Positions 2,307 to 64,000 are shown, numbered from the stretch's first letter. The stretch: DNA of 64,000 nt from Bacteroidia bacterium (GCA_019695215.1 JAIBAK010000009.1:13389-77388); one strand, 5' to 3'. A program made the numbers and translations. The notes: generated by a model from the letters alone, not told the origin.

Positions 2307-2335
2307 TTTCTTTAAACTTGCGGTAAATTTACATT

Positions 2336-15671: not shown

Positions 15672-15909
15672 GTACAAATAGAACGAAAAAAAACGTGACT
15701 TGAATATTACGCAAAGAAGAAATTTAGGATTCAATCCGACCGAACGGTTCAATGATTTTGAACCTACCGAAAACCATCCCCCTACCCCCTTTGCTTGCAC
15801 TCAACCCCACGCTGCAAGGGGGACTTAGAACATTTTTAGCACAAGACAATATGTTGGAGTGGAGAGTAAATCCTTAGCCGCAGGAAAAGGGTAGTTTAAT
15901 GGTAAAAAA

Positions 15910-16782: not shown

Positions 16783-18908
16783 AATTGTAATTCATCTCTT
16801 ATCTCCTGAATTTTATTGATATTAAAATTAATTTGCGACCCCCGAATCTGAATATAACCCTGATATTCCAGTTGATTAAGGGATTGCATAACAAGTTTCC
16901 TATTAATTGTATTCAATTTATGTAATAACTTAAGAATATGTTGAGACTTAGTGGAAGAAATTGACCATAATTCCTTAATAATAACTTCCTCAACCTCATC
17001 AAATAAATGATTATCTTGTTTAGAATGATAATCGTAATGTTCCAAAATTTCACATTCCTTTAATTTACTTTTTATGCTTGATATCTCTTTGGTAGAATCA
17101 AGATAAATTGAATTTTCGACTTTACAAGCATCAAAGGTACAATCAACGAAACTAACTCCATTAAATACAATAGGGTCAAAAATACAAGCTTTAAAATAAC
17201 AGTTTAGAAAAACAGAATTAGAAATACTATGTTTCAAAAAAGGAATATTAAAAAAAGTGGTGTCATAAACCGACAATTCATAATAATCTCTCTCCAGTTC
17301 CTCTCTAAGGATAATGTCATAATTAAAAATTGAAATAGGCTGGAGCTTATGAGTTACGCTATTAACTTTCTCCCATAGGCTTTGTTTATTTCTTTTATTT
17401 TGCACCTTGTATGCGGTACAAGCAAGGTCAAGCATATAATATGAATAATCCTTCTCGATCTTTTCAACAGGTGACTCACAGATTATTTCACCAATTAATA
17501 TTCCCAATACGAAATCATTGATAAATCCAATTTGACTTTCATCTCTCCCTTTCCTATCTAATAATGCGTGTGTGGCTAGTGTATCAACTAAATTCTCAAG
17601 AGTAGGTTTTTCGGCACCTGAGTATAAGGTCCTAGTGTATTCTAAAAGTTTACTATTTTGGTCTTTAATAATCTCCTTAAAAAACTCCTTAGATTCCACG
17701 GTTATATCAAATTCTAATAAAAGTTTTGCTACATTCTTAAAGATTTCGTACTGTTTCTCTTTTGTAATAATTAAGTTCTGGCGTTCCTTCTCTCTCTCAA
17801 GCATTCTATCAAAATACTGTTTAACTAATAAATCAGGACTAATGATCTGGCTCAAAAAATCTTCTCTTGAAATATTTTTTAGGTAAGTTAATAAAACTGG
17901 ATTAGCAATATATTGAATAGGAATATTTCTATCCTTGATTTGGTTAAACCTAGTAGTCCCAACCCAATCCTTAATCCTAGGCTCCTTTAAAGTTAACCTT
18001 GTAACATTGAACTTAGTATTCCATTTTGCAAGCCATTTATCAAACTCTAGTCCACTAAAAATTGCCGTCTTCCGTGTTGTGAGAATAATCTTTGCATTTT
18101 TTTCAAGGAGGTTTCCAATAGTATCAAGCATTGTTTCAATTTCGTCAAATGATTTTGACACATCACTATCTGAAATATTGACCTTTTCAAGAAGCTCATC
18201 AAAGCCATCAATTATTAGGGGGATTCTCCCATTTTTTATCTCGTGAATTACTAGCTCAGAATTAAGAGTTGGAAATTCTAAATCTATTTCATCTAAAAGA
18301 ATGTATCTAAATATTTTGGCTCCTCTATTCTTTGACAATTCAGTAAAAAGGGGGGAAACCAATTCACTTTTATTGTCAGTTAAAGTATTCAGTATCTCAT
18401 ATGCTGCACATGTTTTTCCGTAACCCGCTGCGGCTTCAATAATCAATAACTGGGGTGACCTCGTTGAGATAATTCCTTTTATCTTCTCTAACAATCCTAG
18501 ATTATTATTATTATTATCAAACTGCTCGTATACTTCAAAAGGACTTTCAATGTACTCGTACTTATTTCCGAGCAGTGCCTTTGTTTGTTTATTAACGAAA
18601 TCGTTGTATTTCTTCTTCAGTCGAAGAATAGTAAGGTCATAAGAAAAGAAACTCTTAAACAATTCGCGTTCTACATCTCTAATATCTTTAAAGCATTTAA
18701 CATAAGAAGCATAACCAAGTGCTGAATACCTAAGTTTTATTTTTTCTGCTCTTCCCTTAGTTTCTTCGTCTGAGACTAGTGGAACTATATCTACCCCAAA
18801 ATATCTACTTTTTTTAAACAAAAAACTTGCGATATTTTCTTCTTCATGCTTTACTTCAAATCCATATGTTTTGTAGGTAACTTCTAACTGTTTTAAATCT
18901 ATCTTCAT
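16779..18908 (-). CDS. NACHT-type STAND NTPase (bacterial NLR-like), first gene of the AT-rich island
   Basis: Walker A IIEAAAGYGKTCAA and Walker B LIIDGFDEL (the hhhhDGhDE NACHT signature), followed by ILTTRK. An unrecognised N-terminal domain of about 150 aa ends in an NNNNN tract. The C-terminus has Cys/Phe-rich pentapeptide-like repeats (NCYFKACIFDPIVFNGVSFVDCTFDACKV). Confidence 0.6.
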   Translation of the reverse strand: MKIDLKQLEVTYKTYGFEVKHEEENIASFLFKKSRYFGVDIVPLVSDEETKGRAEKIKLRYSALGYASYVKCFKDIRDVERELFKSFFSYDLTILRLKKKYNDFVNKQTKALLGNKYEYIESPFEVYEQFDNNNNNLGLLEKIKGIISTRSPQLLIIEAAAGYGKTCAAYEILNTLTDNKSELVSPLFTELSKNRGAKIFRYILLDEIDLEFPTLNSELVIHEIKNGRIPLIIDGFDELLEKVNISDSDVSKSFDEIETMLDTIGNLLEKNAKIILTTRKTAIFSGLEFDKWLAKWNTKFNVTRLTLKEPRIKDWVGTTRFNQIKDRNIPIQYIANPVLLTYLKNISREDFLSQIISPDLLVKQYFDRMLEREKERQNLIITKEKQYEIFKNVAKLLLEFDITVESKEFFKEIIKDQNSKLLEYTRTLYSGAEKPTLENLVDTLATHALLDRKGRDESQIGFINDFVLGILIGEIICESPVEKIEKDYSYYMLDLACTAYKVQNKRNKQSLWEKVNSVTHKLQPISIFNYDIILREELERDYYELSVYDTTFFNIPFLKHSISNSVFLNCYFKACIFDPIVFNGVSFVDCTFDACKVENSIYLDSTKEISSIKSKLKECEILEHYDYHSKQDNHLFDEVEEVIIKELWSISSTKSQHILKLLHKLNTINRKLVMQSLNQLEYQGYIQIRGSQINFNINKIQEIRDELQL

Positions 18909-53782: not shown

Positions 53783-54460
53783 TCAGAGAATCACATATCC
53801 CTTCTGGATGGCGTAAATTACTAAGCCGGCTGTATTTCTCGATTTGGTTTTAGCAAGCATTTTCATACGGTAATTCTCAATTGTTTTAGCACTTAATGAA
53901 AGGATGTCGCCAATTTCCTGTGTGGTATGCTCCTTACATATTAGTTCTAAAATGCTTATTTCCGTTTTGTTTAAATCAGGCGCATCGGCCACAGGAAGTG
54001 AAAATACCGGATGATTATTATTCACTAGTTTTTTGAAGAGAGTCACCGATAAATTATCAGCGAAATAATACTCTCCGGAGTTTACTATTTGAATAGCTTT
54101 AATAATTTCTTCGGGGTCGGCATCTTTTAAAATATATCCTCTGGCTCCGGCATCAAACATTTTTGAAACATACAGCTCCTGATTGGAAACAGACAATGCA
54201 ATAACCCGTGCATCAGGGAAAGCCTGCGTTAGTTGTTTTGTAGTACTTATCCCGTCCAATTTCGGCATATTAATGTCCATTAAAAAAATATCAGGACGTA
54301 CTCTGGGATAATTTAACAAAAGCTCTTCCCCGTTATCCGATTCAAGTACAATTTCAAAATCGGGGCAAACAGACAAAGCTGTTTTCAAACCTTCTCTGAA
54401 AATTTTATGATCGTCAGTAATTGAAATTTTAATTTTATCCATGCATTTAGTTTTCTTCAT
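53783..54460 (-). CDS. NarL/FixJ-type response regulator (receiver plus LuxR HTH)
   Basis: ISITDDH, IFLMDINMP, C-terminal HTH LTKTEISILELICKEHTTQEIGDILSLSAKTIENYRMKML. Confidence 0.85.
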   Translation of the reverse strand: MKKTKCMDKIKISITDDHKIFREGLKTALSVCPDFEIVLESDNGEELLLNYPRVRPDIFLMDINMPKLDGISTTKQLTQAFPDARVIALSVSNQELYVSKMFDAGARGYILKDADPEEIIKAIQIVNSGEYYFADNLSVTLFKKLVNNNHPVFSLPVADAPDLNKTEISILELICKEHTTQEIGDILSLSAKTIENYRMKMLAKTKSRNTAGLVIYAIQKGYVIL

Positions 54461-55265
54461 TCAGTTTCTGTTCTGGGGCCACTCGTATTTCCACTCTCAG
54501 CCCGTTTCCGGGTGATGAAATCCAATCAATACTTCCGCCTATCATTTGCACCCTGCTCTCAATATTCCGTAACCCCAAACCTTTCTTTTTGCCGCCCGTT
54601 GCAAAGTCTTTCGGATTAAATCCTGTTCCGTTATCCTCATAGGTATAAATTAAACCGGCATCAGAAACAGTTACTCCTAATTTAATTTTTGTTGCTGAAG
54701 CATATTTTATGGTATTATTAACCAGCTCCTGACTTATTCTGAACAATGCCAGTTCCGCTTCGGCCGGTATGGCGGCCTCACCTGCCTCATAAAAAAATGT
54801 AGTTTCCGTTGTGTTGCTTTCAAAATTACTGAGCAATTGAGCCAGCGCTTCTTTTAATCCAAAATCGAGCAATACTCCCGGCAACAGGCTGTGCGAAATG
54901 GAACGTACTTCTTGTATAGACTGTGTTGTGAGGGTTAAGCTCTGAGCAACCATAGAATCGATTTCTTCCTGATTTTTATTTGCCCGCTTTATTCCGTTAA
55001 TATTTAACTTAATTGCCGAAAGCATTTGGCCAACACTATCGTGTAACTCCCGTGCAAAATACTGCCGCTCCTTTTCCTGAGTATTAATTATAGCATTTAG
55101 TAATTCCTGCTGCCGCTCAATCTCCATTTGCTTTAGCATAAGCTTATAACTCTCCTTACGCTTTAAATACAAAACAACAAACGAAACAATGAATCCAATA
55201 AGGATAATCATTAACAAGGTTCCCCCAATAACGAAATAACTTATCGAATTGATTTTTTCAGACAT
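54447..55265 (-). CDS. sensor histidine kinase (HisKA_3 plus HATPase_c) with single N-terminal TM
   Basis: RELHDSVGQMLSAIKL (H-box), NTIKYASAT (N-box), GTGFNP, GLGLRNIESR (G-boxes). Confidence 0.8.
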   Translation of the reverse strand: MSEKINSISYFVIGGTLLMIILIGFIVSFVVLYLKRKESYKLMLKQMEIERQQELLNAIINTQEKERQYFARELHDSVGQMLSAIKLNINGIKRANKNQEEIDSMVAQSLTLTTQSIQEVRSISHSLLPGVLLDFGLKEALAQLLSNFESNTTETTFFYEAGEAAIPAEAELALFRISQELVNNTIKYASATKIKLGVTVSDAGLIYTYEDNGTGFNPKDFATGGKKKGLGLRNIESRVQMIGGSIDWISSPGNGLRVEIRVAPEQKLNEEN

Positions 55266-55870
55266 AAAAAAGCTGCCCCAAAAATTATATTGGTAAAAAT
55301 GTTAACTAACCCATGAAATGAATACAATTCTATTGGTAATTTCCTAACATACTTAGAGTAGTCATAGAATGAAAAAATAAAAAAATTAACCGAAAAGTAA
55401 ATGAATACTCCAGTAATAATCAGTGAATCACTTCGAAATAGCCCAAAATTATCCTGCTCTAATAACTTATATATGGTAAGCCCACTCCAAAAACACAACC
55501 ATATACATAAAATAGAAATGGGAATAGAATAAAAACGCATGATATTATCCCCCGTCATGGAATAGCAAATAGAAAAAAAACAAAAGAGAATTATGCCTAA
55601 ATACTGAATCTTATTAATAAATGGCTCCCACTTGTAAAATTCTGAAAAAAGATATGTATAAATAATAAAATCCATTAGACTATGTGCCTGAATAATAAAT
55701 AAATTATTTGTACGTGTGGCTGCCAAAACCAACGACCAGAATTCAGTAAACACGGTGACAATACAAAAAATAAAAAATGCCCTGTAGGGTGCATTTAGTT
55801 TGCGCACTACAACCAGCCCGCAAACGGCAGGTATAAGGGAAGAATAAATGGTCAATATGCCAATTGACAC
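55241..55870 (-). CDS. polytopic membrane protein (about 6 TM), probable separate sensor module of the downstream kinase
   Basis: Entirely hydrophobic helices. Its 3' end overlaps the kinase start. Confidence 0.45.
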   Translation of the reverse strand: MSIGILTIYSSLIPAVCGLVVVRKLNAPYRAFFIFCIVTVFTEFWSLVLAATRTNNLFIIQAHSLMDFIIYTYLFSEFYKWEPFINKIQYLGIILFCFFSICYSMTGDNIMRFYSIPISILCIWLCFWSGLTIYKLLEQDNFGLFRSDSLIITGVFIYFSVNFFIFSFYDYSKYVRKLPIELYSFHGLVNIFTNIIFGAAFLCLKKSIR

Positions 55871-56184
55871 TAGCTATTTAATGGATTATTAACGCTACAA
55901 TTAGTAGGACATGGTAAGCCAAAATCGGCTATTACCCCGCGTGTCATATCATTTTCTGAAGAATCGGCACCCACAAATACCAAGGTTGGCTGATTAGTAG
56001 TATCATTAAAAGCGTAGTAAACTCTGATGCCCATACAATCGGGCTGAGCCAGAATTTGATTTAATAAATCGCGGCCCATAAAAATCGCATTGACTGCATC
56101 CTGACCTTTTGCCCGGTAATTGGCGGTTAATGTGGCTGCTTCGTTTAGGGTGATGGCCGAACCCTCTGTTCCGTTAAATGGCAT
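55870..56184 (-). CDS. hypothetical 104-aa soluble protein, first gene of the two-component operon
   Basis: ATG at 56184 (MPFNGTEGSAITLNEAATL ...). The upstream part of the ORF-track entry runs over the repeat hairpins and is probably not translated. Confidence 0.35.
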   Translation of the reverse strand: MPFNGTEGSAITLNEAATLTANYRAKGQDAVNAIFMGRDLLNQILAQPDCMGIRVYYAFNDTTNQPTLVFVGADSSENDMTRGVIADFGLPCPTNCSVNNPLNS

Positions 56185-56244: not shown

Positions 56245-56283
56245 AGAGGGTTTTCCCTCTATAAAAAAGAGGGTTTTCCCTCT
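56245..56283. repeat. two tandem copies of palindromic element AGAGGGTTTTCCCTCT (third copy at 58952-58965)
   Basis: 56245-56260 and 56268-56283 are identical 16-mers, each a GAGGG-TTTT-CCCTC hairpin. 58952-58965 carries the same core with the same TTGT extension. Confidence 0.5.
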
Positions 56284-56553
56284 TGTGCTTATAGAAGCGT
56301 TCGCTCTAATTTTACATCCAAAAAATACCTGAACTATGAGGGCCCTATTTCTAGTTTGATCAGATTGATCCATCGCAGGTGTCGTTGCATCCCCCTAAAA
56401 TCTCTGACACTTTGCGGTGGGTCGGTTTGATTCTGTCAAATATACATAAAGCACCTCAAATGGTAAAAAGACGAAATTCTAATTTATGATAATGCGTTGA
56501 AACTAAATTTATTTATCCCGGGCAATCGAATAAATCGGATAGCCCACTTTTCA

Positions 56554-56570
56554 CCCTTTAGGGTAAATAC
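56554..56570. promoter_or_regulatory. ACCCTTTAGGGTAAATA motif immediately upstream of ATG 56575 (second copy ACCCTAAAGGGTAAATA at 58921-58937)
   Basis: A 12-bp near-palindrome ACCCTnnAGGGT plus TAAATA occurs exactly twice in the window, each time ahead of one sub-operon of the 56.5-62.4 kb cluster. Confidence 0.35.
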
Positions 56571-56716
56571 GCAAATGAAAAAGAAAAAACAGACAGGGAA
56601 AAAAGAAACCACTAAACAAAAAAAAGAGAAGAAATCTTTTTTAAAGACCTACTTACAATCGGTAATGATTAATTTTGAAGAAGGATATCGTTATATCGAA
56701 ACAATCAAACAACCCG

Positions 56717-57415
56717 ATGCAGGCACAAATAAATAATCAGGCTTCGTTTATTCAATTACCCGGCCTCATAAATAACCACTTTCTGACTGAAATTGATAAG
56801 CTGCTTGAAAATGCCAGTTTTATTGACGGGCAGGCAACCGCCACCATGGGCGCTAAAATGGTTAAGAATAATCTTCAGGCAAACCCTGCCCAACAGGAGT
56901 TAATGCAACATTTACAGTATTACATACTTCAGGCTTTTAACCAATCGGGCCTGTTTCAAAATGCTACTTTGCCAAAACAAATTTACGCCCCGGTTTTCAG
57001 TCGCTATTCCCCCGGAATGTACTATGGCTGGCATGTAGATAGCCCGGTAATGGGCCATCCTGCCGTGCGTACCGATATTGCCATGACTATCTTTTTGGAA
57101 GACCCTGATCAATACGAAGGAGGCGAACTTGAAATACAAACTGAAAATGGAACAGTAAAAATTAAACTGAATAAAGGAGATGCCGTTTGTTACCCGTGTC
57201 ACTACCTGCACCGCGTATGCGAGGTAACCAGTGGTACACGGAAAGTAGCCGTTACCTGGATTCAAAGCATGATAAAAAGTCCCGAACAGCGCAATATTCT
57301 TTTCCGGCTTAAAGAACTTCACACGCGTTTATTTGAAAAAGATGCTCAGTCGCCCGAAGCCAATGAATTGCTGCAAACCTATAGCAACCTGCTACGGATG
57401 TGGGCCGAAATATAA
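56717..57415 (+). CDS. Fe(II)/2-oxoglutarate-dependent oxygenase (PKHD-type hydroxylase, YbiX/PiuC-like)
   Basis: GQATA ... YSPGMYYGWHVDS gives an HxD facial triad; EGGELEI; distal RKVAVTWIQS. The ORF-track start at 56675 is possible; 56717 gives a YbiX-like length. Confidence 0.65.
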   Translation: MQAQINNQASFIQLPGLINNHFLTEIDKLLENASFIDGQATATMGAKMVKNNLQANPAQQELMQHLQYYILQAFNQSGLFQNATLPKQIYAPVFSRYSPGMYYGWHVDSPVMGHPAVRTDIAMTIFLEDPDQYEGGELEIQTENGTVKIKLNKGDAVCYPCHYLHRVCEVTSGTRKVAVTWIQSMIKSPEQRNILFRLKELHTRLFEKDAQSPEANELLQTYSNLLRMWAEI

Positions 57416-57990
57416 TAGACTCAGCAATGATTGACTTCTATAAATTTCCCTTCACTTTTAATATAAGTGAAACCCGAAAATTAGTACTTGAACTACCTTC
57501 AAACACCTGGATCCCTCATTACAACAAAAACGATTATGAAGGAGACTGGAGTGTAATTGCCCTGCGCTCGGGGTGGGGACATGAATCCAACATTTACTCT
57601 GTGCCTATGCCCGCTCATTCTTTTCAGGATACGCCTGTCATGAGCCAATTTTCTGATGTACAAAAAATATTAGAACGGCTTAAATGCGATAAAACATCGG
57701 TGAGGTTTATGAAATTGAGTAAGGGTGCCGATATAAAAGAACACTGTGACGACAACTTAGATGCTGAAACCTCGGGTGAAGCCCGACTGCATATTCCAAT
57801 ACAAACGCATAATGATGTTGCCTTTTATTTGAATAAACAACTCGTTAAAATGAAAGAGGGCGAATGCTGGTATCTTAATTTTAATTTGCCGCACAGCGTG
57901 GCAAATCCCGGACCGCTTGACCGCATACATCTGGTAATTGATTGCGTGGTGAACGATTGGTTAAGGCAACTGCTCTTTCATTCTGCCTGA
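57400..57990 (+). CDS. aspartyl/asparaginyl beta-hydroxylase-family cupin (AspH/LpxO/OlsC-like, no TM)
   Basis: RLHIPIQTHNDVAFYLNKQLVKMKEGECWYLNFNLPHSVANPGPLDRIHLVIDC matches the Asp_Arg_Hydrox core. An alternative start is ATG 57427. Confidence 0.6.
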   Translation: MGRNIIDSAMIDFYKFPFTFNISETRKLVLELPSNTWIPHYNKNDYEGDWSVIALRSGWGHESNIYSVPMPAHSFQDTPVMSQFSDVQKILERLKCDKTSVRFMKLSKGADIKEHCDDNLDAETSGEARLHIPIQTHNDVAFYLNKQLVKMKEGECWYLNFNLPHSVANPGPLDRIHLVIDCVVNDWLRQLLFHSA

Positions 57991-57992
57991 CC

Positions 57993-58928
57993 ATGCCAGT
58001 ATTTCCGTTACGGCCGGTTCTGGTTGCCGATCAAATTTATTTTTCGCCAGTTGAACTCAATGAAGATGCCTTTGGTGAACCGTTTTTTGATGATTGTTTA
58101 AAAACTACTCCTGTTAACGAAAAGTGCGACTTAGATACCTGCGAAGTTCCTCTTCACATCATCGAACCCGAAGCATTTATTTTTCATCTTTCCCATTGTG
58201 GTTCCACCCTGATGGCCCAATCACTGGCCGCCATAAACAGCCACCGGGTAATAAGCGAACCTGAAATAATTAATACCATTTTTTTATCTAAGGTATTTAA
58301 TAACGACCCTGACGAAAAATGTATTAACCGGCTGCGTTTAGCCATTCGCTTACTGCTGCAACCCGTTAATGCGAATGAAAAACATGCTTTTATTAAATTC
58401 ACCTCCTGGAATATTTTTCATGCTGAGTTAATAAGAAAAGCGTTTCCCGAAACTCGGTTTATATATATACACCGGGAGCCTGCCGAAGTTATCGCATCAC
58501 TTAAAAAAGATCCGAATGGTTTTGCTCAATGGAATAAACATGCTGCACCTGTACTTGCATCCCGGTATTTAAAAAAATCGGCTGATGAAATTTACCGGCT
58601 TACCACTGATGAATACCTTGGTGAAATGCTTTTGCTGCATATGCATCATGCGCTTCATTCATTGCCCGCGCATACTGGTTATCTCATTTTTCCGGATTGG
58701 ATAAAACAATTCCCCGATAACATTTTTAACGATTCCGCGCGCCTAACAGTCATTCGCAAAAAAATGACTCAACGCCTTTTATTCAATGCCAAAAAACCTG
58801 CTGAAAAATTTAATAAGTCCGGTGAACCAGCTGAAAAAATACTACTAAGCAATTCATTACGGATAAAAATACAGGAAATTCATCTTCGTATATTAGACCG
58901 TACAAGCAATAAAATTGGTTCAAAATAA
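57993..58928 (+). CDS. sulfotransferase-like protein (P-loop-like 5'-PSB HLSHCGSTL)
   Basis: Start ATG 57993 (MPVFPLRP), 2 nt after the upstream stop. HLSHCGSTLMAQSL and a later RFIYIHREPAEVIASL resemble PAPS-binding 5'-PSB/3'-PB elements. The family call is tentative. Confidence 0.45.
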   Translation: MPVFPLRPVLVADQIYFSPVELNEDAFGEPFFDDCLKTTPVNEKCDLDTCEVPLHIIEPEAFIFHLSHCGSTLMAQSLAAINSHRVISEPEIINTIFLSKVFNNDPDEKCINRLRLAIRLLLQPVNANEKHAFIKFTSWNIFHAELIRKAFPETRFIYIHREPAEVIASLKKDPNGFAQWNKHAAPVLASRYLKKSADEIYRLTTDEYLGEMLLLHMHHALHSLPAHTGYLIFPDWIKQFPDNIFNDSARLTVIRKKMTQRLLFNAKKPAEKFNKSGEPAEKILLSNSLRIKIQEIHLRILDRTSNKIGSK

Positions 58929-59056
58929 TTACCCTAAAGGGTAAATATTTTTAAAAAAAATGAGGGTTTTCCCTCTTGTTTTAAAACAAACAAAATCGGT
59001 TTTTTACAAAACTGATATCTGAAAAAATAAAATTTAAACCAAAGCAAAAACAAAAA

Positions 59057-59587
59057 ATGACCGCCAACCCAATAACCGGCCAACAGCCATTTACCAATGA
59101 AATGGCGAAAAAAATGATTGACTTTGTAAGGAGCCTTGGTATTGAAGTAAAACATGCAAGCGTTCCCGACAATCCGCTTATCCCCGGTATTCGGGTGCAG
59201 CATGGTGTAATGCTCATTGATGAAAATAATCTTACTTATCCGGGAGATATTTTATATCAGGCAGGTCGCATGGCCATTCTTCCGGCAGGCGAACGTGCTT
59301 CATATAACGGAGAAGATCATCCGGATAAAACAACTGAAGCCGCACAGGCCATGACGGCTATGTGCTGGTCGTGGGCCGCACTTACTCATTTGCAAATTGC
59401 ACCTGAAGTAGTATTTCACAACGGAGGATATAAAGGACAATCCATGCAAATAATTCATGGATATCAAAGCGGGGCCTATATGGGGCTTCCTATTATGCAA
59501 ATGTATGAGATGGCCTATGAACCGCATCAGGCAGCGGCTAAAGGATTAAACCCTTTTCCCTACATGTACAAATGGATTAACAGCTAA
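59057..59587 (+). CDS. hypothetical 176-aa protein preceding the tail-collar triplet
   Basis: Intact ORF with ATG start; no family recognised. Confidence 0.45.
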   Translation: MTANPITGQQPFTNEMAKKMIDFVRSLGIEVKHASVPDNPLIPGIRVQHGVMLIDENNLTYPGDILYQAGRMAILPAGERASYNGEDHPDKTTEAAQAMTAMCWSWAALTHLQIAPEVVFHNGGYKGQSMQIIHGYQSGAYMGLPIMQMYEMAYEPHQAAAKGLNPFPYMYKWINS

Positions 59588-59631
59588 GCTTTATCTAAAA
59601 TAAATTTTCAAACTAAAAAAAATTACACTTT

Positions 59632-60192
59632 ATGGAAGGAATGATTGGTGAAATCCGCATGTTCGCGGGAAATTTCGCCCCCAAAACATGGGCATTTTGT
59701 TCAGGGCAAACCGTGAACATTGCCTCCAACACCGCCCTCTTCAGTATTCTGGGTACAACCTACGGAGGGAATGGAACCACCACCTTTGCTTTGCCCGACC
59801 TGCGCGGTCGTATGGCTGTAGGACAAGGGACCGGACCGGGTTTATCTCCTATTGCTCTTGGAGAAAAAGCCGGTTCTGAAACGGTAACCCTAACAACTAA
59901 CAACATCCCTCCCCACTCGCATGTGGGTGCAGGTACTTTTAGCGGCACCTGGAAAATGCCGGCCAGCACTGAAAGTGGTGGTGCTACCCCTACCGGTAAT
60001 GCCATTGGTGTTACTTCAAGCAACATGTTCGATGGGGGTACAGATGCATCTCTTGCCAATGCGCCCATCACGGGCAATGTAACTGCCGCAATCAGCCCGA
60101 ATGGCGGAGGTTTTCCTTTCTCCGTGCTCGGGCCGTACATTGCCGTCTATTATATAATTTGCCAGTTTGGCGTTTTCCCTTCGAGAAACTAA
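59632..60192 (+). CDS. phage tail-collar domain protein (MdpB-like), paralog 1 of 3
   Basis: MEGMIGEIRMFAGNFAPKTWAFCSGQTVNIASNTALFSILGTTYGGNGTTTFALPDLRGR ... C-terminal ICQFGVFPSRN. The canonical Collar-domain N-terminal block and G-x-FPSR ending are present. Confidence 0.8.
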   Translation: MEGMIGEIRMFAGNFAPKTWAFCSGQTVNIASNTALFSILGTTYGGNGTTTFALPDLRGRMAVGQGTGPGLSPIALGEKAGSETVTLTTNNIPPHSHVGAGTFSGTWKMPASTESGGATPTGNAIGVTSSNMFDGGTDASLANAPITGNVTAAISPNGGGFPFSVLGPYIAVYYIICQFGVFPSRN

Positions 60193-60231
60193 GACTATTC
60201 ATTTATTAAAACTTAATTTAAAAACACATTT

Positions 60232-60807
60232 ATGGAAGGATATATAGCAGAAATGAGGTATTTCGCCTCCAATTTCGCCCCAAAAAACTGGGCATTATGT
60301 GCCGGTCAGCTGATGGCCATTTCAACCAATCAGGCTCTTTTTAGTTTATTAGGTACTACCTATGGTGGTGATGGACGTACCACTTTTGCACTGCCTGATG
60401 CACGCGGCAGATTTATAGTGAGCCCCGGACAAAGCCAGGGCACAAGCAATTATGCGCTTGGACAAAAGTCCGGTTCGCCTACTACTACCCTCACCTTACA
60501 GAATCTCCCTTCGCACACACATACTATTGTGAGTAGCGCTGTGTCTGGCAGCGTTACTCCGGTAGGATCAACCGAAACGTCAACTAGCGAACCCAATGGA
60601 ATGCGGTTTGGTGCCGGAGACGGAATAAATCCATATTCGCAAACAGGGTCGCCTGATACTACGCTTACTCCGGCATCGGTTTCGGGCATTACCAACAATA
60701 TAAGTATTGGTACCTCGGGTGGCTCACAACCCATGCCCATTCTCAGTCCGTACCTCGGGCTAAATGTGGTGATTTGCCAGTTTGGTATTTTCCCATCCAG
60801 AAATTAA
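60232..60807 (+). CDS. phage tail-collar domain protein (MdpB-like), paralog 2 of 3
   Basis: MEGYIAEMRYFASNFAPKNWALCAGQLMAISTNQALFSLLGTTYGGDGRTTFALPDARGR ... ICQFGIFPSRN. Confidence 0.8.
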   Translation: MEGYIAEMRYFASNFAPKNWALCAGQLMAISTNQALFSLLGTTYGGDGRTTFALPDARGRFIVSPGQSQGTSNYALGQKSGSPTTTLTLQNLPSHTHTIVSSAVSGSVTPVGSTETSTSEPNGMRFGAGDGINPYSQTGSPDTTLTPASVSGITNNISIGTSGGSQPMPILSPYLGLNVVICQFGIFPSRN

Positions 60808-60853
60808 TTCTTAAACTCTTAATTCAATTTATTTAAACTTAATATAAATTTAC

Positions 60854-61423
60854 ATGGAAGGATATATGTCAGAAATAAGACTCTTCGGAGGCAACTTTGC
60901 CCCTCAGGGTTATATGCTGTGTCAGGGCCAGCAAATGAGTATTGCTCAATGGTCGGCACTATACGCATTACTTGGAACTATGTATGGTGGAGACGGTGTA
61001 CAAACTTTTAACCTCCCAGATTTGCGTGGCCGTACTCCAATTGGGGCAGGACAGGGCCCCGGACTTCCTATGATGGATGAAGGACAGGCAGGTGGTTCTG
61101 AAAGCATGACCATGACAACGCAATACATGCCTGTTCATAATCATGCATTAACTGTTAGCTCCATTACGGCCAGCGCTTCACTCAAAGCGTTTACAACAGC
61201 CGGAAGTTCAGACCAGCCTATAGCAAGTTTTATGGCCAGCGCACCTGAATTGTACGTTGCCCCTGCATCGGCTGATGCATTCATGGCTCCTCAAACTGTT
61301 AGTGGTACAGTATCGCTTTCCCTAAGTGCAACCGGTAGCGGCCAACCTTTCAGCAACCGATCTCCTTATCTTGGTATTAATTTCATTATTTGTGTAGAAG
61401 GTATATTCCCTAGCAGAAATTAA
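60854..61423 (+). CDS. phage tail-collar domain protein (MdpB-like), paralog 3 of 3
   Basis: MEGYMSEIRLFGGNFAPQGYMLCQGQQMSIAQWSALYALLGTMYGGDGVQTFNLPDLRGR ... ICVEGIFPSRN. Confidence 0.8.
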   Translation: MEGYMSEIRLFGGNFAPQGYMLCQGQQMSIAQWSALYALLGTMYGGDGVQTFNLPDLRGRTPIGAGQGPGLPMMDEGQAGGSESMTMTTQYMPVHNHALTVSSITASASLKAFTTAGSSDQPIASFMASAPELYVAPASADAFMAPQTVSGTVSLSLSATGSGQPFSNRSPYLGINFIICVEGIFPSRN

Positions 61424-61508
61424 TATTTAACGTAATTACAACTATTTAAAACCTGTAACCTTCGGATAACTAAAATCCGGAGGTTGCAGGTTTTTAGTAA
61501 TTCAAAGA

Positions 61509-62426
61509 ATGAAAATTTCGGTTTTATGTAACAGTCGCCTGGCTATTCCGGCCATTCAACAGTTAGCCCTTTCGGGTGAACTGAAGGGAGTAGGTGTTCC
61601 CGATCGTGCTCATGAAGATAATGAGGAAATCTCTTATGTGTGCAACCGGCTAAATATTCCTGTTCACACCCTTCAGCATACCGGTTTAGAAACAAATCTG
61701 GTCGAATGGATCAAGAAATGGAATCCGGATGTGGTGCTGGTATTTACCTTTCCCTATAAAATTCCTGAAACGGTTTTACCAATTCCCGATTACGGATTCA
61801 TTAATTTTCATTTTGGGTTATTACCCGCTTACAGAGGTTCGGATGCCATTTTCTGGCAAATAAAAAACCGGGAACCCATGGGCGGTATCAGCGTGCACCA
61901 AATGACCGGTGAACTGGACCGAGGGCCCATTTATTTTATTCAAAAAGTTGCGATTGTTCCCGATGACACTTATGGCTCTCACAGCAACGCTTTAAGTTTT
62001 GCCGGTGCAGGTGCCGTGTCAAACTTGCTTTTGATGCTTAAACAGGGCAAACAAGCCACTGCTCAAAACGAACAGGAGGCATATTATTACCACCGCCCCA
62101 CGCTGGAAGATGTGATGATAGACTGGACTAAACCCGCTGATGACATCATCGCTTTAATTAACGCCTGCAACCCATGGAATAAGGGAGCGTTTACTATCCA
62201 AAATAACACTCCAGCAAAAATTATTCATGCATATAAAATAACATATGAAGAAAAACACCATTTACCAGGGTTTATAAAAAGTATCACCGATAAAGGACTT
62301 TTGGTTTGTTGTAGCAAAAATGATCACTTGCTTATACAAACCATTTTTGTTAATAATGAATTTTTGAATAGTTGCCGATTTCAAAAGACTAGTTGGAAAG
62401 AGGGTTTTTGTTTCTATAATCCTTAA
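61509..62426 (+). CDS. formyltransferase-family protein (Fmt/ArnA-N-like), last gene of the cluster
   Basis: GFINFHFGLLPAYRGSDAIFWQIKN carries the formyltransferase SLLP/HxSLLPxxRG-type motif with the catalytic His; a C-terminal Fmt-C-like domain follows. This is distinct from the bona fide fmt at 2336. Confidence 0.7.
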   Translation: MKISVLCNSRLAIPAIQQLALSGELKGVGVPDRAHEDNEEISYVCNRLNIPVHTLQHTGLETNLVEWIKKWNPDVVLVFTFPYKIPETVLPIPDYGFINFHFGLLPAYRGSDAIFWQIKNREPMGGISVHQMTGELDRGPIYFIQKVAIVPDDTYGSHSNALSFAGAGAVSNLLLMLKQGKQATAQNEQEAYYYHRPTLEDVMIDWTKPADDIIALINACNPWNKGAFTIQNNTPAKIIHAYKITYEEKHHLPGFIKSITDKGLLVCCSKNDHLLIQTIFVNNEFLNSCRFQKTSWKEGFCFYNP

Positions 62427-62534: not shown

Positions 62535-64000
62535 ATGAAAAAAAATGCGCTTTTATTTTGCTTGCTTCTTGTCTTGTTGAAGCATTCAATTGCTCAAAAT
62601 CCAAACCCACGTTGGCTATATGTAGACAACCTCGCAGGCATTTTAGGTACGCCTTATCAGGCGGAACTTATTACATACCTCGATAATCAAAACATAACAT
62701 ACATTGCCGCTTATCAGGTGCATGAAATATCTATAGCACACCCTTGTTTGCTGGCAGATTTTATAAGTCAATGTCATGCGGTGGGTACGGGCGTGGGTGC
62801 TATTCTCAGCAGCCCCTGTTCAGCCGGCAGCAGCCACGTTTCCATTGGCACCTTCTGGTATGATAAATACCTGAATATTGTTGATTATAACAACCAAAGT
62901 GTAACCACCCTTCCTGCCATGTGCGGTTCGGGATGGAATTTCACCTCTCCCCAGATTGACGCTATCCACATAGAGAACGAATACTGGAATATGCACCCTG
63001 ACGATTACAACGATATGGTGACCAATATGAACAGTATGATAAGTCATCGCAGTATCAATAGCACCAATATAGAGTTCCATATTCATATGGCCAGGTATCC
63101 TTCAGGTGGAAGTTGGCCAAGCGTTGCTACACAGGCCGGATTTATTGCTGATAACTTTAATGTGGTGCAGGTCGTCAATTACGCTTCTGACGAAAATAAA
63201 TTGCTCGACAATACTTTAAACATAGTAAAACCACTGCTTGATAACACAACGAAAAGCCAACTGAATGTTTCCATACTTTTTTCAAACCTCTGCAATGCAT
63301 CAGGCGATTGGTTGAGAAGTAATAGCTGGAACCATGACCTTTTATATGCGGATAAGTACACCAACAAACTTAACGCATTTAATAGCTCATCCCAAGCCTG
63401 TTCAACCTCGTATTATGGATGCAACCAATCAAAATTGAACTTAATGCCTCCAACCTGGTTCTCCTACTCCTTTGAATTCTCATTTCCCGATATCCTATGT
63501 GATGGAGTATTTCACCCCAATCATCCCGAAAACAGCACCTCAAACCTATCCAAAGAATTTGGCACGATTGAAACCCTACCTGGGGGGGCTAAGCGCAATG
63601 CCAGTCAGGATCGGGTTGTTATCCAGCCACCACAATTACAATTAATGACTAACCTTCATCAGTTAACTGACCCTTTTCATAGTTACACATTTGAGGCCTG
63701 GATCAATGTACCGGCCGTGGTATTATCAACCGAATATGCTACCAACAACACTATACGTACTCTTTTTGTCAACTACTCATACTCTTGGGAGATTACAGAA
63801 GACGATATTATCGTTTTTGCGCATCATCCCGTCAACGGTTTTCGTATTGCGCTTGATAATAGCAACCACCTCATGGTAGCATCGCCCAACTTCACTGATG
63901 CTTCAGGCAACACCTTTTATATGCCTCCCGCCAATTACTCCCCCACTTTTACCAGAACACTCGATGAGATTAGGGTAACAGATGACAATGCTCTTCCGAC
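62535..64000 (+). CDS. secreted protein of unknown function, partial (runs off window end); possible glycoside-hydrolase-like (IENEYW motif)
   Basis: ATG 62535, signal peptide MKKNALLFCLLLVLLKHSIAQ, open frame to position 64000 with no stop. Not in the ORF track because it is truncated. Confidence 0.4.
   Translation, partial: MKKNALLFCLLLVLLKHSIAQNPNPRWLYVDNLAGILGTPYQAELITYLDNQNITYIAAYQVHEISIAHPCLLADFISQCHAVGTGVGAILSSPCSAGSSHVSIGTFWYDKYLNIVDYNNQSVTTLPAMCGSGWNFTSPQIDAIHIENEYWNMHPDDYNDMVTNMNSMISHRSINSTNIEFHIHMARYPSGGSWPSVATQAGFIADNFNVVQVVNYASDENKLLDNTLNIVKPLLDNTTKSQLNVSILFSNLCNASGDWLRSNSWNHDLLYADKYTNKLNAFNSSSQACSTSYYGCNQSKLNLMPPTWFSYSFEFSFPDILCDGVFHPNHPENSTSNLSKEFGTIETLPGGAKRNASQDRVVIQPPQLQLMTNLHQLTDPFHSYTFEAWINVPAVVLSTEYATNNTIRTLFVNYSYSWEITEDDIIVFAHHPVNGFRIALDNSNHLMVASPNFTDASGNTFYMPPANYSPTFTRTLDEIRVTDDNALP

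Follow-up and report, generated by a model that had tools for sequence, protein, structure and literature searches.

The genes at 56.7-62.4 kb of the window, by which we mean the whole 64-kb stretch of DNA that was analyzed, form a conserved cellular module and not a prophage. A hydroxylase, a protein of 176 amino acids denoted U176 and two to three tail-collar (Collar, PF07484) genes recur together in at least six phyla; the adjacency is thus not unique to this genome, a point that the sequence-only reading had left to a survey of genomic context. We conclude that the functional link between the Collar triplet and the enzymes is real, because the module recurs across phyla, U176 genes are fused to those of other module members and a common operator-like repeat is present in the clade of the window. 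The sequence-only reading had proposed that the enzymes modify the Collar proteins; recurrence, fusions and repeats bear out the enzyme link, whereas Collar is a candidate substrate, with part of the enzyme evidence indicating a small molecule just as readily.

Organization and distribution of the module

Eight co-directional genes lie on the plus strand where the sequence-only reading had placed them, and Pfam and NCBIfam supported the family call of every assigned gene. Together with the next gene downstream, they are:

56717..57415 (ORF opens at 56675), plus strand: YbiX/PiuC-family Fe(II)/2OG dioxygenase (2OG-FeII_Oxy_3 and PKHD_C; NF003974, 245 bits)
57400..57990, plus strand: PF05118 cupin Fe(II)/2OG hydroxylase, denoted AspOH (Asp_Arg_Hydrox, Pfam 4e-16)
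57993..58928 (ORF opens at 57942), plus strand: sulfotransferase (Sulfotransfer_3, Pfam 2.5e-8)
59057..59587, plus strand: U176, 176 aa, zincin-fold putative hub protein, without a Pfam or NCBIfam family match
59632..60192, plus strand: Collar paralog 1, 186 aa, predicted complete fibre-tip module (PF07484, 3e-28)
60232..60807, plus strand: Collar paralog 2, 191 aa (PF07484, 1.5e-26)
60854..61423, plus strand: Collar paralog 3, 189 aa (PF07484, 3.5e-26)
61509..62426, plus strand: specialized Fmt/ArnA-N-like formyltransferase (Formyl_trans_N and Formyl_trans_C)
62535..64000, plus strand: secreted protein with a signal peptide, > 488 aa, running past the window end, no Pfam match

The likely true starts of the YbiX and sulfotransferase genes are the ATG codons at 56717 and 57993, the latter 2 nt past the hydroxylase stop, and the start of the AspOH gene overlaps the end of the YbiX gene by 16 nt. 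The cluster had been taken to begin at 56497, where a 79-aa TTG ORF opens; relatives carry no conserved equivalent, and it is probably not a gene. The ninth gene, downstream of the formyltransferase, had gone unmentioned. The flanks of the cluster within the window contain no phage structural genes, in agreement with the earlier view that the locus does not represent a prophage tail module, and 50,697 phage genomes encode virtually no homologs of U176 or the hydroxylase.

Among 75 U176-seeded species genomes, Collar genes were identified in 25 of the 33 loci with partner enzymes versus 3 of the 42 without (odds ratio 41, p = 7e-10, a statistic that ignores the kinship of the genomes). Five independently sampled, Collar-seeded loci encoded the formyltransferase, downstream of the Collar genes, in four cases, a Peripla_BP_6 (PBP6) protein in three, and AspOH, U176 and YbiX in two. 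AspOH-U176 pairs without Collar genes were identified in four loci.

The Collar triplet

The assignment of the three paralogs to the Collar family holds (PF07484, E-values of 1e-26 to 3e-28), as do their N- and C-terminal signatures and hypervariable middle regions. Paralogs 2 and 3 are 48% and 41% identical to paralog 1, respectively. Residues M1, E2, H95, H97 and a C-terminal FPSR are invariant among 32 Collar homologs, and a profile of these homologs aligns across the whole unit to phage T4 gp12 (1OCY, positions 5-171), with PaHtH aligned to the gp12 YHKH and the C-terminal strand aligned to LNYII. The profile also matches the long tail fibre 8KEC (2e-11), and the Collar proteins have full-length matches to phage minor tail proteins. 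On these alignments, each paralog is a complete tip of the gp12/long-fibre type, with an HxH pair and a C-terminal strand. A monomer modelled alone in AF2 yielded no fold (pLDDT 50), as expected if the trimer is intertwined.

Bacteroidota (L072, L082) and Planctomycetota (L024) share orthologs at each of Collar positions 1, 2 and 3, as do members of the window clade, in which paralogs 2 and 3 of the window are position-orthologous to their counterparts in two relatives (L016_2 and L017_2; L016_3 and L017_3). This positional orthology across phyla, along with the 1:1:1 fibre of virophage DSLV2 (see below), suggests that the three ancient paralogs most likely assemble 1:1:1 as a knitted heterotrimeric knob. 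The window Collar proteins lack signal peptides and no export route is evident. One signal-peptide-bearing homolog was detected elsewhere, encoded 3 nt upstream of a T9SS protein with no enzymes nearby.

U176

The most informative gene of the cluster, passed over by the sequence-only reading, encodes U176, a previously undescribed zinc-protease-like protein. Its family comprises about 950 clusters with a zincin fold and an HExxH motif and has no Pfam entry. The motif is intact in about 95% of homologs, suggesting that U176 is probably an enzyme in most genomes and not merely an adaptor. In the window it is degenerate (YQAGR), yet the in-cluster copies of this clade that lack HExxH are 65-86% conserved, compatible with binding rather than catalysis. 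U176 is fused to AspOH (16 cases), carbamoyltransferase (4) and c22 (3), and also to APS kinase, sulfotransferase and GNAT plus AspOH. In Pedobacter it adjoins a Collar triplet with no other module member, and many Alphaproteobacteria encode it on its own, flanked by serC and serA. The multiple fusions, the Pedobacter pairing and the retained HExxH-less copy suggest that U176 acts as a hub, as do the capacity of zincin folds to bind extended peptides and the example of YfcM, in which such a fold acts on a protein substrate (PMC4231759).

Tailoring enzymes

The YbiX-like protein exceeds the NF003974 cut-off (245 versus 143 bits), matches PiuC structures (9QN1 at 3e-39) and is encoded in 12 Collar-positive loci as well as in L097 and L098. 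The second hydroxylase does belong to PF05118, as the label ‘Asp/Asn beta-hydroxylase’ implied (4e-16), but its closest solved relatives are free L-proline cis-4- and 3-hydroxylases and not the protein-modifying ASPH. The best of these is the L-proline cis-4-hydroxylase 4P7W (2e-7), in which H-x-D and the distal H align; the sole NCBIfam match is a weak one to TIGR04531, a ‘non-proteinogenic amino acid hydroxylase’ model. In other genomes AspOH is fused to U176 or to sulfotransferase. Sulfotransferase accompanies AspOH in 11 loci, four with APS kinase, and carbamoyltransferase accompanies AspOH in seven, whereas the two transferases never co-occur. This mutual exclusion around a common partner would fit a hydroxyl that is capped by either sulfate or carbamate.

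The formyltransferase scores 130 bits against TIGR00460, below the 201.5-bit cut-off, and the window carries a housekeeping fmt elsewhere (2327-3268, 250 bits); the cluster enzyme is a second, non-housekeeping and specialized Fmt-like protein. NodU/TobZ-type carbamoyltransferases and Fmt/ArnA-type formyltransferases are mostly known to act on small-molecule, sugar-nucleotide or tRNA substrates. In most Bacteroidota loci a leaderless PBP6 protein adjoins Fmt, which suggests a small ligand. No glycosyltransferase recurs in the module, so the suggestion of a glycan-type modification is unsupported.

Inverted repeats and the adjacent two-component operon

Upstream of the module lies a divergent two-component operon, and inverted repeats occur in the intergenic regions:

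53783..54460, minus strand: LuxR/NarL-type response regulator (Response_reg and GerE), candidate module regulator
54447..55265, minus strand: histidine kinase (Pfam HisKA_3 and HATPase_c), gene overlapping the regulator gene
55241..55870, minus strand: 209-aa multi-pass membrane protein, possible sensor partner (hydrophobic sequence, no Pfam match)
55870..56184, minus strand: conserved 104-aa protein, first gene of the operon (ATG at 56184, no Pfam match)
56246-56259 and 56269-56282, no strand: tandem inverted-repeat pair GAGGGTTTTCCCTC, 23 bp apart, proposed operator, located where the two-component operon and the YbiX gene diverge
58930-58943, no strand: promoter-proximal palindrome TACCCTAAAGGGTA in the gap upstream of U176
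58962-58975, no strand: third copy of GAGGGTTTTCCCTC, lying 82-95 bp ahead of the U176 start codon (ATG)

The response regulator (51% identity) and histidine kinase (46-48% identity) are syntenic beside the module in L016 and L017, which also encode 53-57% identical orthologs of the 104-aa protein at the same position; L016 has a 213-aa ORF at the position of the 209-aa membrane protein. The three exact copies of GAGGGTTTTCCCTC in 64 kb compare with 0.01 expected. Both relatives have equivalent tandem pairs (TAGGG-N4-CCCTA) at the same relative positions, and the repeat recurs two to three times in their gaps upstream of U176, such that in this clade an AGGG-N4-CCCT repeat precedes every module transcription unit and the adjacent two-component operon. 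The shared repeats and syntenic two-component genes suggest a single regulon. The repeats at 58930..58975 also score as weak terminator-like hairpins and could act at the level of RNA.

Sorted surface partner

The most constant neighbor of Collar is a sorted surface protein, identified in four of the five Collar-seeded loci; PKD-type proteins were identified in 16 of 28 seeded loci. In Bacteroidota a T9SS-sorted family, T9P, is encoded downstream of Collar/Fmt, and in Betaproteobacteria a PEP-CTERM protein takes its place. Loci outside the Bacteroidota often comprise enzymes and Collar genes without a recognizable surface partner. In the window, the conserved T9P and PBP6 genes were not found; the secreted protein at 62535 occupies the position of the T9SS partner in relatives, yet is not homologous to T9P, and its membership in the module is uncertain.

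Proposed function and alternatives

The reading that we tentatively prefer, as a whole somewhat short of an even chance, is that a Collar fibre-tip triplet is tailored by a U176-centred suite and acts with a surface partner. The three paralogs, each with a collar, a metal-binding HxH head and a C-terminal strand, would form a knob. A cytoplasmic suite would be built around U176, which would serve its members in common for docking or recognition. In this suite the PF05118 hydroxylase would install a hydroxyl together with YbiX or PhyH. The sulfotransferase would then cap that hydroxyl with sulfate, drawing on PAPS that APS kinase supplies; other lineages would use carbamate instead, through the carbamoyltransferase. 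In Bacteroidota the Fmt-like enzyme would formylate an amine. The substrate would be the leaderless Collar subunits, modified while still in the cytoplasm on heads that are hypervariable and rich in Ser/Thr/Asn/Asp/Gly. Once exported, the Collar knob would act alongside a sorted surface protein (with a T9SS tail in Bacteroidota or PEP-CTERM in Betaproteobacteria) in adhesion or ligand binding. In the window clade, the NarL-type system would switch the module on through the AGGG-N4-CCCT operators. Against this reading stand the solitary U176 of Alphaproteobacteria, the four Collar-free AspOH-U176 pairs, and, in the window, the leaderless Collar proteins and the missing T9P and PBP6 genes. Against Collar as the substrate, the solved relatives nearest in sequence to the hydroxylase act on free proline, and a small molecule is indicated just as readily by the carbamoyltransferase, the Fmt-like enzyme and the leaderless PBP-type protein.

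A small-molecule pathway is a possible but rather unlikely alternative, in which a free amino acid or primary metabolite would become a hydroxylated, O-sulfated (or O-carbamoylated) and N-formylated product, with U176 as a metallohydrolase step and the PBP-like protein binding an intermediate; the Collar trimer would use, bind or display the product, or be co-regulated for a shared surface function. Favoring it are the L-proline hydroxylase and weak TIGR04531 matches, the PBP6 protein beside Fmt, the usually intact HExxH, the serC-serA location of U176 and the presence of typical small-molecule tailoring enzymes (carbamoyltransferase, APS kinase, GNAT, methyltransferase-like c22 and Gfo/Idh/MocA oxidoreductases); the APS kinase-U176 fusion is also easier to understand as a fusion at the level of a pathway than as a means of substrate docking. 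However, no scaffold-forming enzyme (NRPS, PKS, ligase or glycosyltransferase) or exporter recurs in the module, and such a pathway leaves unexplained why the suite is found with fibre-tip proteins in six phyla, why U176 alone adjoins the Pedobacter triplet and why the window clade retains a catalytically dead U176. It is improbable that the enzymes instead act on the sorted surface protein encoded with them (T9P, PKD-repeat, PEP-CTERM or the downstream protein of the window), with the Collar trimer as a cytoplasmic assembly factor or partner. The constancy of the sorted partner, even beside the minimal signal-peptide form of Collar, is consistent with this, but proteins exported by Sec leave the cytoplasm unfolded and shortly after they are made, giving multi-step cytoplasmic tailoring little room; moreover, the partners, unlike Collar, are not homologous between phyla, are often unrecognizable outside the Bacteroidota and, in the window, are represented by a protein unrelated to T9P.

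Complete receptor-binding tips that lack a leader and carry hypervariable heads, and the positive selection reported among Solibacter Collar paralogs (PMC3174227), would also suit an anti-phage decoy or assembly poison, in which cytoplasmic tip mimics co-trimerize with or compete against phage fibres or receptors and the enzymes tune the mimicry. We consider this very improbable: no module gene matches a PADLOC defence-system model, the sole match being between a CRISPR-associated ‘2OG’ profile and the YbiX-like protein, through the generic 2OG-oxygenase domain of the latter, and the module lies outside a defence-island context. The constant link to sorted surface proteins, the existence of exported Collar members and the essential absence of U176 and the hydroxylase from phage genomes also argue against it. 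Least credible, and highly unlikely, is the lipid/envelope modification island of the sequence-only reading, in which an LpxO/OlsC-like hydroxylase and an ArnA-like formyltransferase were acquired with an unrelated Collar triplet. PF05118 includes LpxO and OlsC, and the formyltransferase scores about equally against the ArnA N-domain and Fmt. The hydroxylase, however, is short (196 aa), soluble and without an LpxO/OlsC model match; the formyltransferase reaches 111 bits on the ArnA equivalog model, for which the cut-off is 777 bits, and lacks the dehydrogenase half; and the window contains no arnB/C/T-type genes. The hydroxylase is, moreover, fused to U176 or sulfotransferase and tracks Collar across phyla, including lineages that lack the formyltransferase, and shared operator-like repeats join the module units. 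Tailoring of the Collar triplet remains our preferred reading.

Comparison with known systems

The Collar proteins are homologous across the whole ~180-residue unit to the T4 short tail fibre gp12 (1OCY) and to long fibre tips (8KEC; gp37-type), with which they share an N-terminal collar, a P-x-H-x-H pair, a variable head and a C-terminal beta-strand; a knitted, metal-binding trimer is expected. Unlike these tips, they stand alone, lacking a shaft, a means of baseplate attachment and accompanying phage genes, and comprise three diverged paralogs, not one chain, alongside cellular tailoring enzymes that phages lack. In virophage DSLV2, three tandem ~190-aa PF07484 proteins co-purify as a 1:1:1 heterotrimeric fibre of ~16 nm, for which LPS was proposed as a ligand (PMC12724248). 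The module likewise has three consecutive, co-directional ~190-aa PF07484 genes. The DSLV2 fibre is a virion part encoded beside capsid genes, and it is accompanied by neither an enzyme suite nor a hub protein or sorted surface partner. MdpB (COG4675), RhiB (Rhizobium rhiABC) and MrpB (Microcystis) are chromosomal or plasmid-borne, non-phage members of the same Pfam family, and COG4675 proteins are expressed, in the quorum-regulated rhi operon and in soil metaproteomes. The rhi and mrp operons have other partners (RhiA/RhiC and MrpA), and the literature searched did not link MdpB, RhiB or MrpB to a tailoring-enzyme module or to U176, nor did it analyze them specifically as triplets.

For the enzymes, the iron ligands (H-x-D...H) of 4P7W align with those of the module hydroxylase, although the two are only about 25-30% similar over 135 residues and differ in length (292 versus 196 aa). 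The EF-P lysine hydroxylase YfcM/EpmC (PDB 4PDN; PMC4231759) also counts among the closest known systems. U176 resembles RiPP recognition elements (PqqD-like RRE) and other docking domains that tailoring enzymes share by analogy only, in that each is a small domain that occurs on its own or joined to tailoring enzymes of one pathway that differ in their chemistry. The folds of U176 and the RRE are unrelated, U176 being a zincin usually with an intact HExxH, and its putative substrate would be a folded ~190-aa protein or a metabolite rather than a leader peptide.

Gene Content of the Module

The eight co-directional plus-strand genes that the sequence-only reading had described were present as it described them, and every family call that it made was upheld in searches of Pfam and NCBIfam. 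Proteins identical to those of this uncultured Bacteroidia bacterium were found only on short metagenome contigs and in one NCBI MAG.

Features of the module (176-aa protein and its homolog family denoted U176)
56675-57415 (likely start ATG 56717), plus strand: YbiX/PiuC-type PKHD dioxygenase; NF003974, 245 bits versus a 143-bit cut-off
57400-57990, plus strand: PF05118 cupin hydroxylase; 16-nt overlap with the YbiX gene
57993 (likely start, 2 nt past the hydroxylase stop), plus strand: Sulfotransfer_3 protein (Pfam)
59057-59587, plus strand: U176, 176 aa; without a Pfam, NCBIfam, or PADLOC match
59632-61423, plus strand: three Collar (PF07484) proteins of 186, 191, and 189 aa; E about 1e-26 to 1e-28
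61509-62426, plus strand: 305-aa protein with Formyl_trans_N and Formyl_trans_C (Pfam); no further domains
62535 to past the window end, plus strand: ninth gene, a secreted protein unrelated to the T9SS-sorted family (T9P) found near Collar genes elsewhere

The YbiX-like protein carries a PKHD_C domain at its C-terminus (4e-7, Pfam) and is matched by PiuC structures at 3e-39; the TonB-receptor neighbor that is usual for YbiX/PiuC is absent beside it. Known contexts of PiuC/YbiX are limited to iron uptake. Position 56497, at which the module had been said to start, belongs to a non-conserved TTG ORF. A small Lys-rich ORF on the plus strand (56575-56736, MKKKKQTGKKETTKQKKEKK...) lies upstream of, and overlaps, the YbiX start. 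As the ORF 56497/56575-56736 it was the sole candidate for a RiPP-style precursor peptide and was rejected, being absent from the two closest relatives of the module (loci L016 and L017). It is probably not a gene, since it is not conserved in those loci, where the intergenic region spans only ~170 bp.

The module had also been correctly judged not to be a prophage tail module, as phage structural genes are absent from its flanks. Inspection of 10 kb to each side, both in the window and in 33 related loci, revealed no sheath, tube, baseplate, tape-measure, or capsid genes, and no tRNA or tmRNA genes were detected in the window (1-64000). Elsewhere in the window, a low-GC islet (GC 0.31-0.35; 14910-18908, minus strand) looks like a NACHT/STAND-type defense candidate with an alarmone-synthetase-like partner.

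Genes of the low-GC islet
14910-15800, minus strand: LOG/SLOG 'lysine decarboxylase'-family gene; adjoins the RelA/SpoT and NACHT pair
15910-16782, minus strand: RelA/SpoT-domain protein; gene overlaps the NACHT NTPase gene by 4 nt
16779-18908, minus strand: 709-aa NACHT NTPase with an N-terminal inactive-REase domain

Collar Proteins as Complete Phage Fiber Tips

The three Collar paralogs are 41-48% identical to each other and scored 98, 93, and 91 bits for the Collar domain versus a 24-bit Pfam cut-off. A single paralog matched T4 gp12 (1OCY, 5IV5) in the collar region, and a profile of 32 homologs aligned to gp12 across the whole unit, with the P-x-H-x-H of the profile (PaHtH) on S-Y-H-K-H of gp12 and the C-terminal strand PYLGLNYII on ISLNYII. 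Both the H-x-H pair and the distal C-terminal beta-strand, ~100 residues past the collar, are present in the window paralogs. The gp12 histidines of the aligned pair reportedly bind metal in the 1OCY structure. A phage long tail fiber (8KEC) was a better profile match than gp12 (2e-11), and minor tail proteins of actinobacteriophages matched over the full length (Collar residues 3-183). The 32 Collar homologs all share M1-E2, H95/H97, and a C-terminal FPSR(N/D), and residues ~100-160 are hypervariable with abundant Gly, Ser, Thr, Asn, and Asp. An AF2 monomer model of paralog 1 (32-sequence alignment) reached a pLDDT of 50 and a pTM of 0.20; low monomer confidence would be expected if the fold forms solely within a knitted trimer.

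Neighbor-joining reconstruction indicated that Collar positions 1, 2, and 3 are orthologous across distant genomes, both between Bacteroidota (L072 and L082) and Planctomycetota (L024) and between the window and its two closest relatives, with recent duplications instead in a few lineages. In the virophage DSLV2, three consecutive PF07484 proteins co-purify 1:1:1 and form ~16 nm fibers (PMC12724248). Position orthology and this precedent suggest that the triplet most likely assembles as a heterotrimer.

A search with one paralog as the query returned at least 8,000 clusters at ≥90% identity. Known members of the PF07484/COG4675 family include RhiB, MrpB, and 'MdpB'. Fusions of Collar to U176 or to an enzyme were considered and dismissed, as long Collar hits proved to be tandem double-Collar proteins or apparent frameshifted read-throughs.

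Conservation of the Gene Neighborhood

The adjacency of Collar genes and enzymes is not unique to this genome. The neighborhood recurs across phyla, and the functional link that had been proposed is strongly supported. With a U176 alignment as the seed, one genome per GTDB species was scanned, and ORFs were labeled by phmmer and all-against-all clustering. U176 was detected in at least 578 genomes from many phyla, and 80 loci were kept. Collar genes were identified in 28 of 75 U176-seeded loci (13 triplets, 9 pairs, and 6 singles) affiliated with Bacteroidota, Ignavibacteriota, Planctomycetota, Verrucomicrobiota, Acidobacteriota, Chloroflexota, and Beta- and Gammaproteobacteria. Recurrent partners in these 28 loci comprised the PF05118 hydroxylase (21), PKD/He_PIG repeat surface proteins (16), a leaderless Peripla_BP_6 protein (PBP6; 14), the formyltransferase-like protein (Fmt-like; 13), YbiX (12), sulfotransferase (7), PhyH (6), carbamoyltransferase (5), and APS kinase (3). 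Collar genes were present in 25 of 33 loci with any partner enzyme versus 3 of 42 without (odds ratio 41, p = 7e-10, uncorrected for phylogeny).

Five Bacteroidota contigs served as a reciprocal check, selected solely because they were long and encoded a Collar protein of 51-57% identity. Four encoded Fmt, four a T9SS-sorted partner, three PBP6, and two the hydroxylase/U176/YbiX suite. Collectively, the U176-seeded and Collar-seeded counts indicate a cross-phylum core of hydroxylase, U176, and two to three Collar genes, to which Bacteroidota add PBP6, Fmt, and a T9SS protein. In Ignavibacteriota, an ORF cluster (c47) adjoins Collar genes in L022 (14466-15365), L028 (5247-6092), and L051 (13615-14187, minus strand); its products are ~280-300 aa in the former two and a 190-aa fragment in the last. 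From its sequence, c47 looks like a GNAT acetyltransferase, which would be another lineage-specific tailoring enzyme.

The Collar-negative U176 loci were mostly alphaproteobacterial, with U176 alone between serC and serA/purA. This placement looks like that of a housekeeping gene and lies outside what a hub role for U176 explains. Such lone copies, with HExxH intact and situated at about position 10000 of loci devoid of Collar and tailoring genes, occur in L018, L020, L021, L025, L026, L029, L035, L046, L047, L052, L053, L069, L070, L076, and others.

Identity of the Tailoring Enzymes

The alternative that the sequence-only reading had offered, a lipid-modification set with an LpxO/OlsC-like hydroxylase and an ArnA-like formyltransferase, was rejected by membership tests for both. 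LpxO/OlsC was assessed with curated family models and as a membrane-associated protein of ~300 aa; the window hydroxylase has 196 aa, no hydrophobic segment, and only a weak NCBIfam match (TIGR04531). The formyltransferase scored 111 bits versus the 777-bit ArnA cut-off, has only the Formyl_trans_N/_C domains, and is not accompanied by arn genes. Nor is the hydroxylase an ASPH-type protein Asp/Asn beta-hydroxylase: phmmer against the PDB returned proline hydroxylases (2e-7, 0.11) and no ASPH chain at E ≤ 1, and the closest enzymes are free L-proline cis-4- and 3-hydroxylases.

Housekeeping methionyl-tRNA formyltransferase was likewise dismissed as the identity of 61509-62426 (TIGR00460, 130 bits, below the 201.5-bit cut-off). 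A true fmt is encoded elsewhere in the window, and the cluster gene is therefore a second, specialized paralog.

Housekeeping formyltransferase gene of the window
2327-3268, plus strand: methionyl-tRNA formyltransferase; TIGR00460, 250 bits, above the cut-off

By eye, the cluster protein contains the N-x-H...D catalytic motif (as INFH...ELDRG).

Sulfotransferase (11 loci) and carbamoyltransferase (7 loci) never co-occurred, and the hydroxylase accompanied the former in 11 of 11 loci and the latter in 5 of 7. We read this mutual exclusion, with the hydroxylase common to both, to mean that a single newly added hydroxyl is capped in one of two alternative ways. Sequence searches of the PDB with the sulfotransferase, T9P, and c22 (an ORF cluster) yielded no useful match. 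A phage origin of the enzymes was rejected on a search of 50,697 phage genomes (no hits for U176 and 4 weak hits for the hydroxylase). PADLOC defense models matched nothing in Collar, U176, Fmt, sulfotransferase, or PBP6 and only a generic 2OG-oxygenase domain in the YbiX-like protein, and membership in a known defense system was rejected on this basis.

U176, a Zincin-Like Protein and Proposed Hub

Tested for membership in the zincin fold, U176 was found to belong to it, and the family is zincin-like. An exhaustive HMM search recovered 957 representative clusters (637 at E ≤ 1e-10), none of which matched a Pfam model. HExxH is intact, as HEAGH or HEAAH, in 85 of about 90 homologs, and distant members combine HEAGH with an EE farther downstream; at the HEAGH site, YQAGR is present in the window protein and in the homologs closest to it. 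In the window protein, HExxH is thus not intact and the downstream EE is missing, which suggests that it is probably a pseudo-enzyme. Loss of HExxH is limited to the in-cluster copies of the window, L016, and L017. The latter two loci encode a second U176 copy with HExxH intact beside a PhyH gene; no second copy was found within the 64 kb of the window.

Among the best 149 U176 clusters, 31 are fusions. Partners include the hydroxylase (16, in both orders), carbamoyltransferase (4), and the unknown protein c22 (3), with single fusions to APS kinase, to sulfotransferase, and to GNAT plus hydroxylase. A hydroxylase-sulfotransferase fusion exists as well (L019). In Pedobacter, U176 adjoins a Collar triplet without other module enzymes. 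Judged from these gene fusions, U176 appears to be a hub that links the module enzymes.

A Proposed Shared Operator and Regulation

Three copies of a perfect inverted repeat, GAGGGTTTTCCCTC, are present in the window, versus 0.01 expected in 64 kb. A pair of them, spaced 23 bp apart, is located 62-98 bp upstream of the start codon (ATG, 56184) of a minus-strand operon. This operon is divergent from the YbiX gene and encodes a 104-aa protein, a membrane protein, a HisKA_3 kinase, and a LuxR/NarL-type regulator. The third lies 82-95 bp upstream of the U176 ATG.

First gene of the two-component operon
55870-56184, minus strand: conserved 104-aa protein heading the operon; no family match

The listed 167-aa ORF (from 56373) probably over-extends across the operator repeats, with 56184 as the start of the 104-aa protein. 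Orthologs of this protein in L016 and L017 are 53-57% identical and occupy the same position, and the kinase, regulator, and 104-aa genes are syntenic there. In these two loci, both equivalent sites carry the core of the repeat, AGGG-TTTT/AAAA-CCCT, as a tandem pair with 22-bp spacing, and an extra pair is situated between the second U176 copy and the PhyH gene. Only one more occurrence of the core was found across 1.57 Mb of other loci, beside a PhyH/carbamoyltransferase/U176 cluster (L089).

Weak terminator-like hairpins in the 129-bp gap before U176 indicate that the hydroxylase/sulfotransferase unit and the U176-Collar-Fmt unit may be two transcripts. Based on their upstream sequences, the two units look like one regulon, and we infer that the neighboring two-component regulator is likely to be the protein that binds the GAGGGTTTTCCCTC repeats. 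Both 5' regions (56553-56564 and 58930-58943) also have a second palindrome in common, ACCCTTTAGGGT / TACCCTAAAGGGTA, with AAATA after it, and a longer related palindrome, AGGGTAAACATTT...AAATGTTTACCCT, is present in the divergent region of L016 and L017. A generic scan for sigma-70 promoters gave fewer sites than shuffled sequences did, and a count of the Bacteroidetes -7 motif was at chance level; both say little on operon structure.

Recurrent Partners at the Cell Surface

In Bacteroidota, the gene 3' of Collar/PBP6/Fmt usually encodes a conserved T9P protein of ~430-470 aa that comprises a signal peptide, an 'AGDIAFTGY' N-domain (no Pfam entry), and a T9SS Por_Secre_tail. The genes for T9P and PBP6 are absent from the window. 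In Betaproteobacteria, a secreted PEP-CTERM protein occupies the equivalent position, and the partner in Denitromonas and Rhodocyclaceae is analogous to the T9SS partner of Bacteroidota.

Surface-sorted partners in compared loci
T9P: L096 13446-14777; L055 4043-5350; L064 14224-15522; L094 11273-12586; L016 13432-14850; L100 12788-14173
287-aa secreted PEP-CTERM protein after a Collar pair (Denitromonas, Rhodocyclaceae): L032 12767-13630; L037 12686-13546; L060 11957-12835 (minus strand)

Planctomycetota encode giant beta-helix repeat proteins near Collar genes. In two homologs ~54% identical to paralog 1, P0095 (L102, 4587-5174) and P0035, the collar is immediately preceded by a classical Sec signal peptide, and P0035 comprises a tandem of two shortened Collar units. 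Just 3 nt separate the P0095 gene from a following gene for a T9SS-tail protein, and no tailoring enzymes are encoded nearby; this is a single example.

Possible Substrates of the Enzymes

That the Collar proteins are the substrate of the module enzymes is plausible, at somewhat less than an even chance. Collar is the sole non-enzymatic component common across phyla and is multi-copy with hypervariable polar heads, and the enzymes accompany its leaderless forms. The Pedobacter triplet has U176 alone alongside, a catalytically dead U176 is kept in the clade of the window, and a zincin cleft binds peptides; each of these observations is consistent with modification of the protein itself. The intact HExxH of most U176 proteins and the serC/serA context in Alphaproteobacteria point instead to a small-molecule pathway, which we regard as somewhat less likely than a protein substrate. 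Such a pathway would also suit a hydroxylase nearest to enzymes of free proline rather than to ASPH, and the set of a carbamoyltransferase, an Fmt-like protein, an APS kinase, and a cytoplasmic PBP-type binding protein is one that typically serves to tailor metabolites. The compared loci had no recurrent glycosyltransferase, scaffold-forming enzyme, or exporter.

With the Collar proteins as substrate, the observations can be combined into a single tentative reading, which as a whole we consider less likely than not. Phage fiber tips would have been domesticated in bacteria of at least six phyla as heterotrimeric knobs, the hypervariable heads of which would be chemically diversified after translation by hydroxylation, then sulfation or carbamoylation, together with formylation. 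The enzymes would be recruited through U176 as a dedicated docking domain of zincin fold, analogous at the protein level to RiPP recognition elements. Controlled by a two-component system, the knobs would act together with the sorted surface proteins as adhesins or ligand receptors that can be tuned.

Few phage-derived proteins are as widespread in bacterial chromosomes as those of the COG4675/'MdpB'/RhiB type, which also appear in soil metaproteomes yet have had no function since the 1990s. The module provides a defined set of partners with a predicted order of reactions (hydroxyl, then sulfate or carbamate), a hub family of ~950 clusters without a Pfam entry that joins enzymes physically through fusions, a likely regulator with its operator, and recurrent surface-sorted partners. 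If fiber tips are the substrate, this would represent a new kind of enzymatic diversification of receptor-binding proteins and a new docking-domain logic for protein tailoring, with a bearing on adhesion, predation, phage-host biology, and the engineering of binding proteins. Should a small molecule be the product instead, a phage-derived binding protein would be tied to an undescribed family of amino-acid-type metabolites that are formylated and either sulfated or carbamoylated. In both cases the biology would be new.

In full-text searches of an incomplete library, for tail-collar triplets with these enzymes and for COG4675 or PF07484, no earlier account emerged of the enzyme module, the family of U176, the alternation of sulfate and carbamate, the operator, or the surface-partner rule. 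The locus encodes domesticated phage fiber-tip proteins, with a substantial chance of something more. MrpC of Microcystis was considered as a precedent for an exported, modified Collar protein and set aside, as it is a tubular-pilus pilin of unrelated fold; among the Microcystis mrp and the rhi proteins, only MrpB/RhiB are of Collar type, unlike MrpC.
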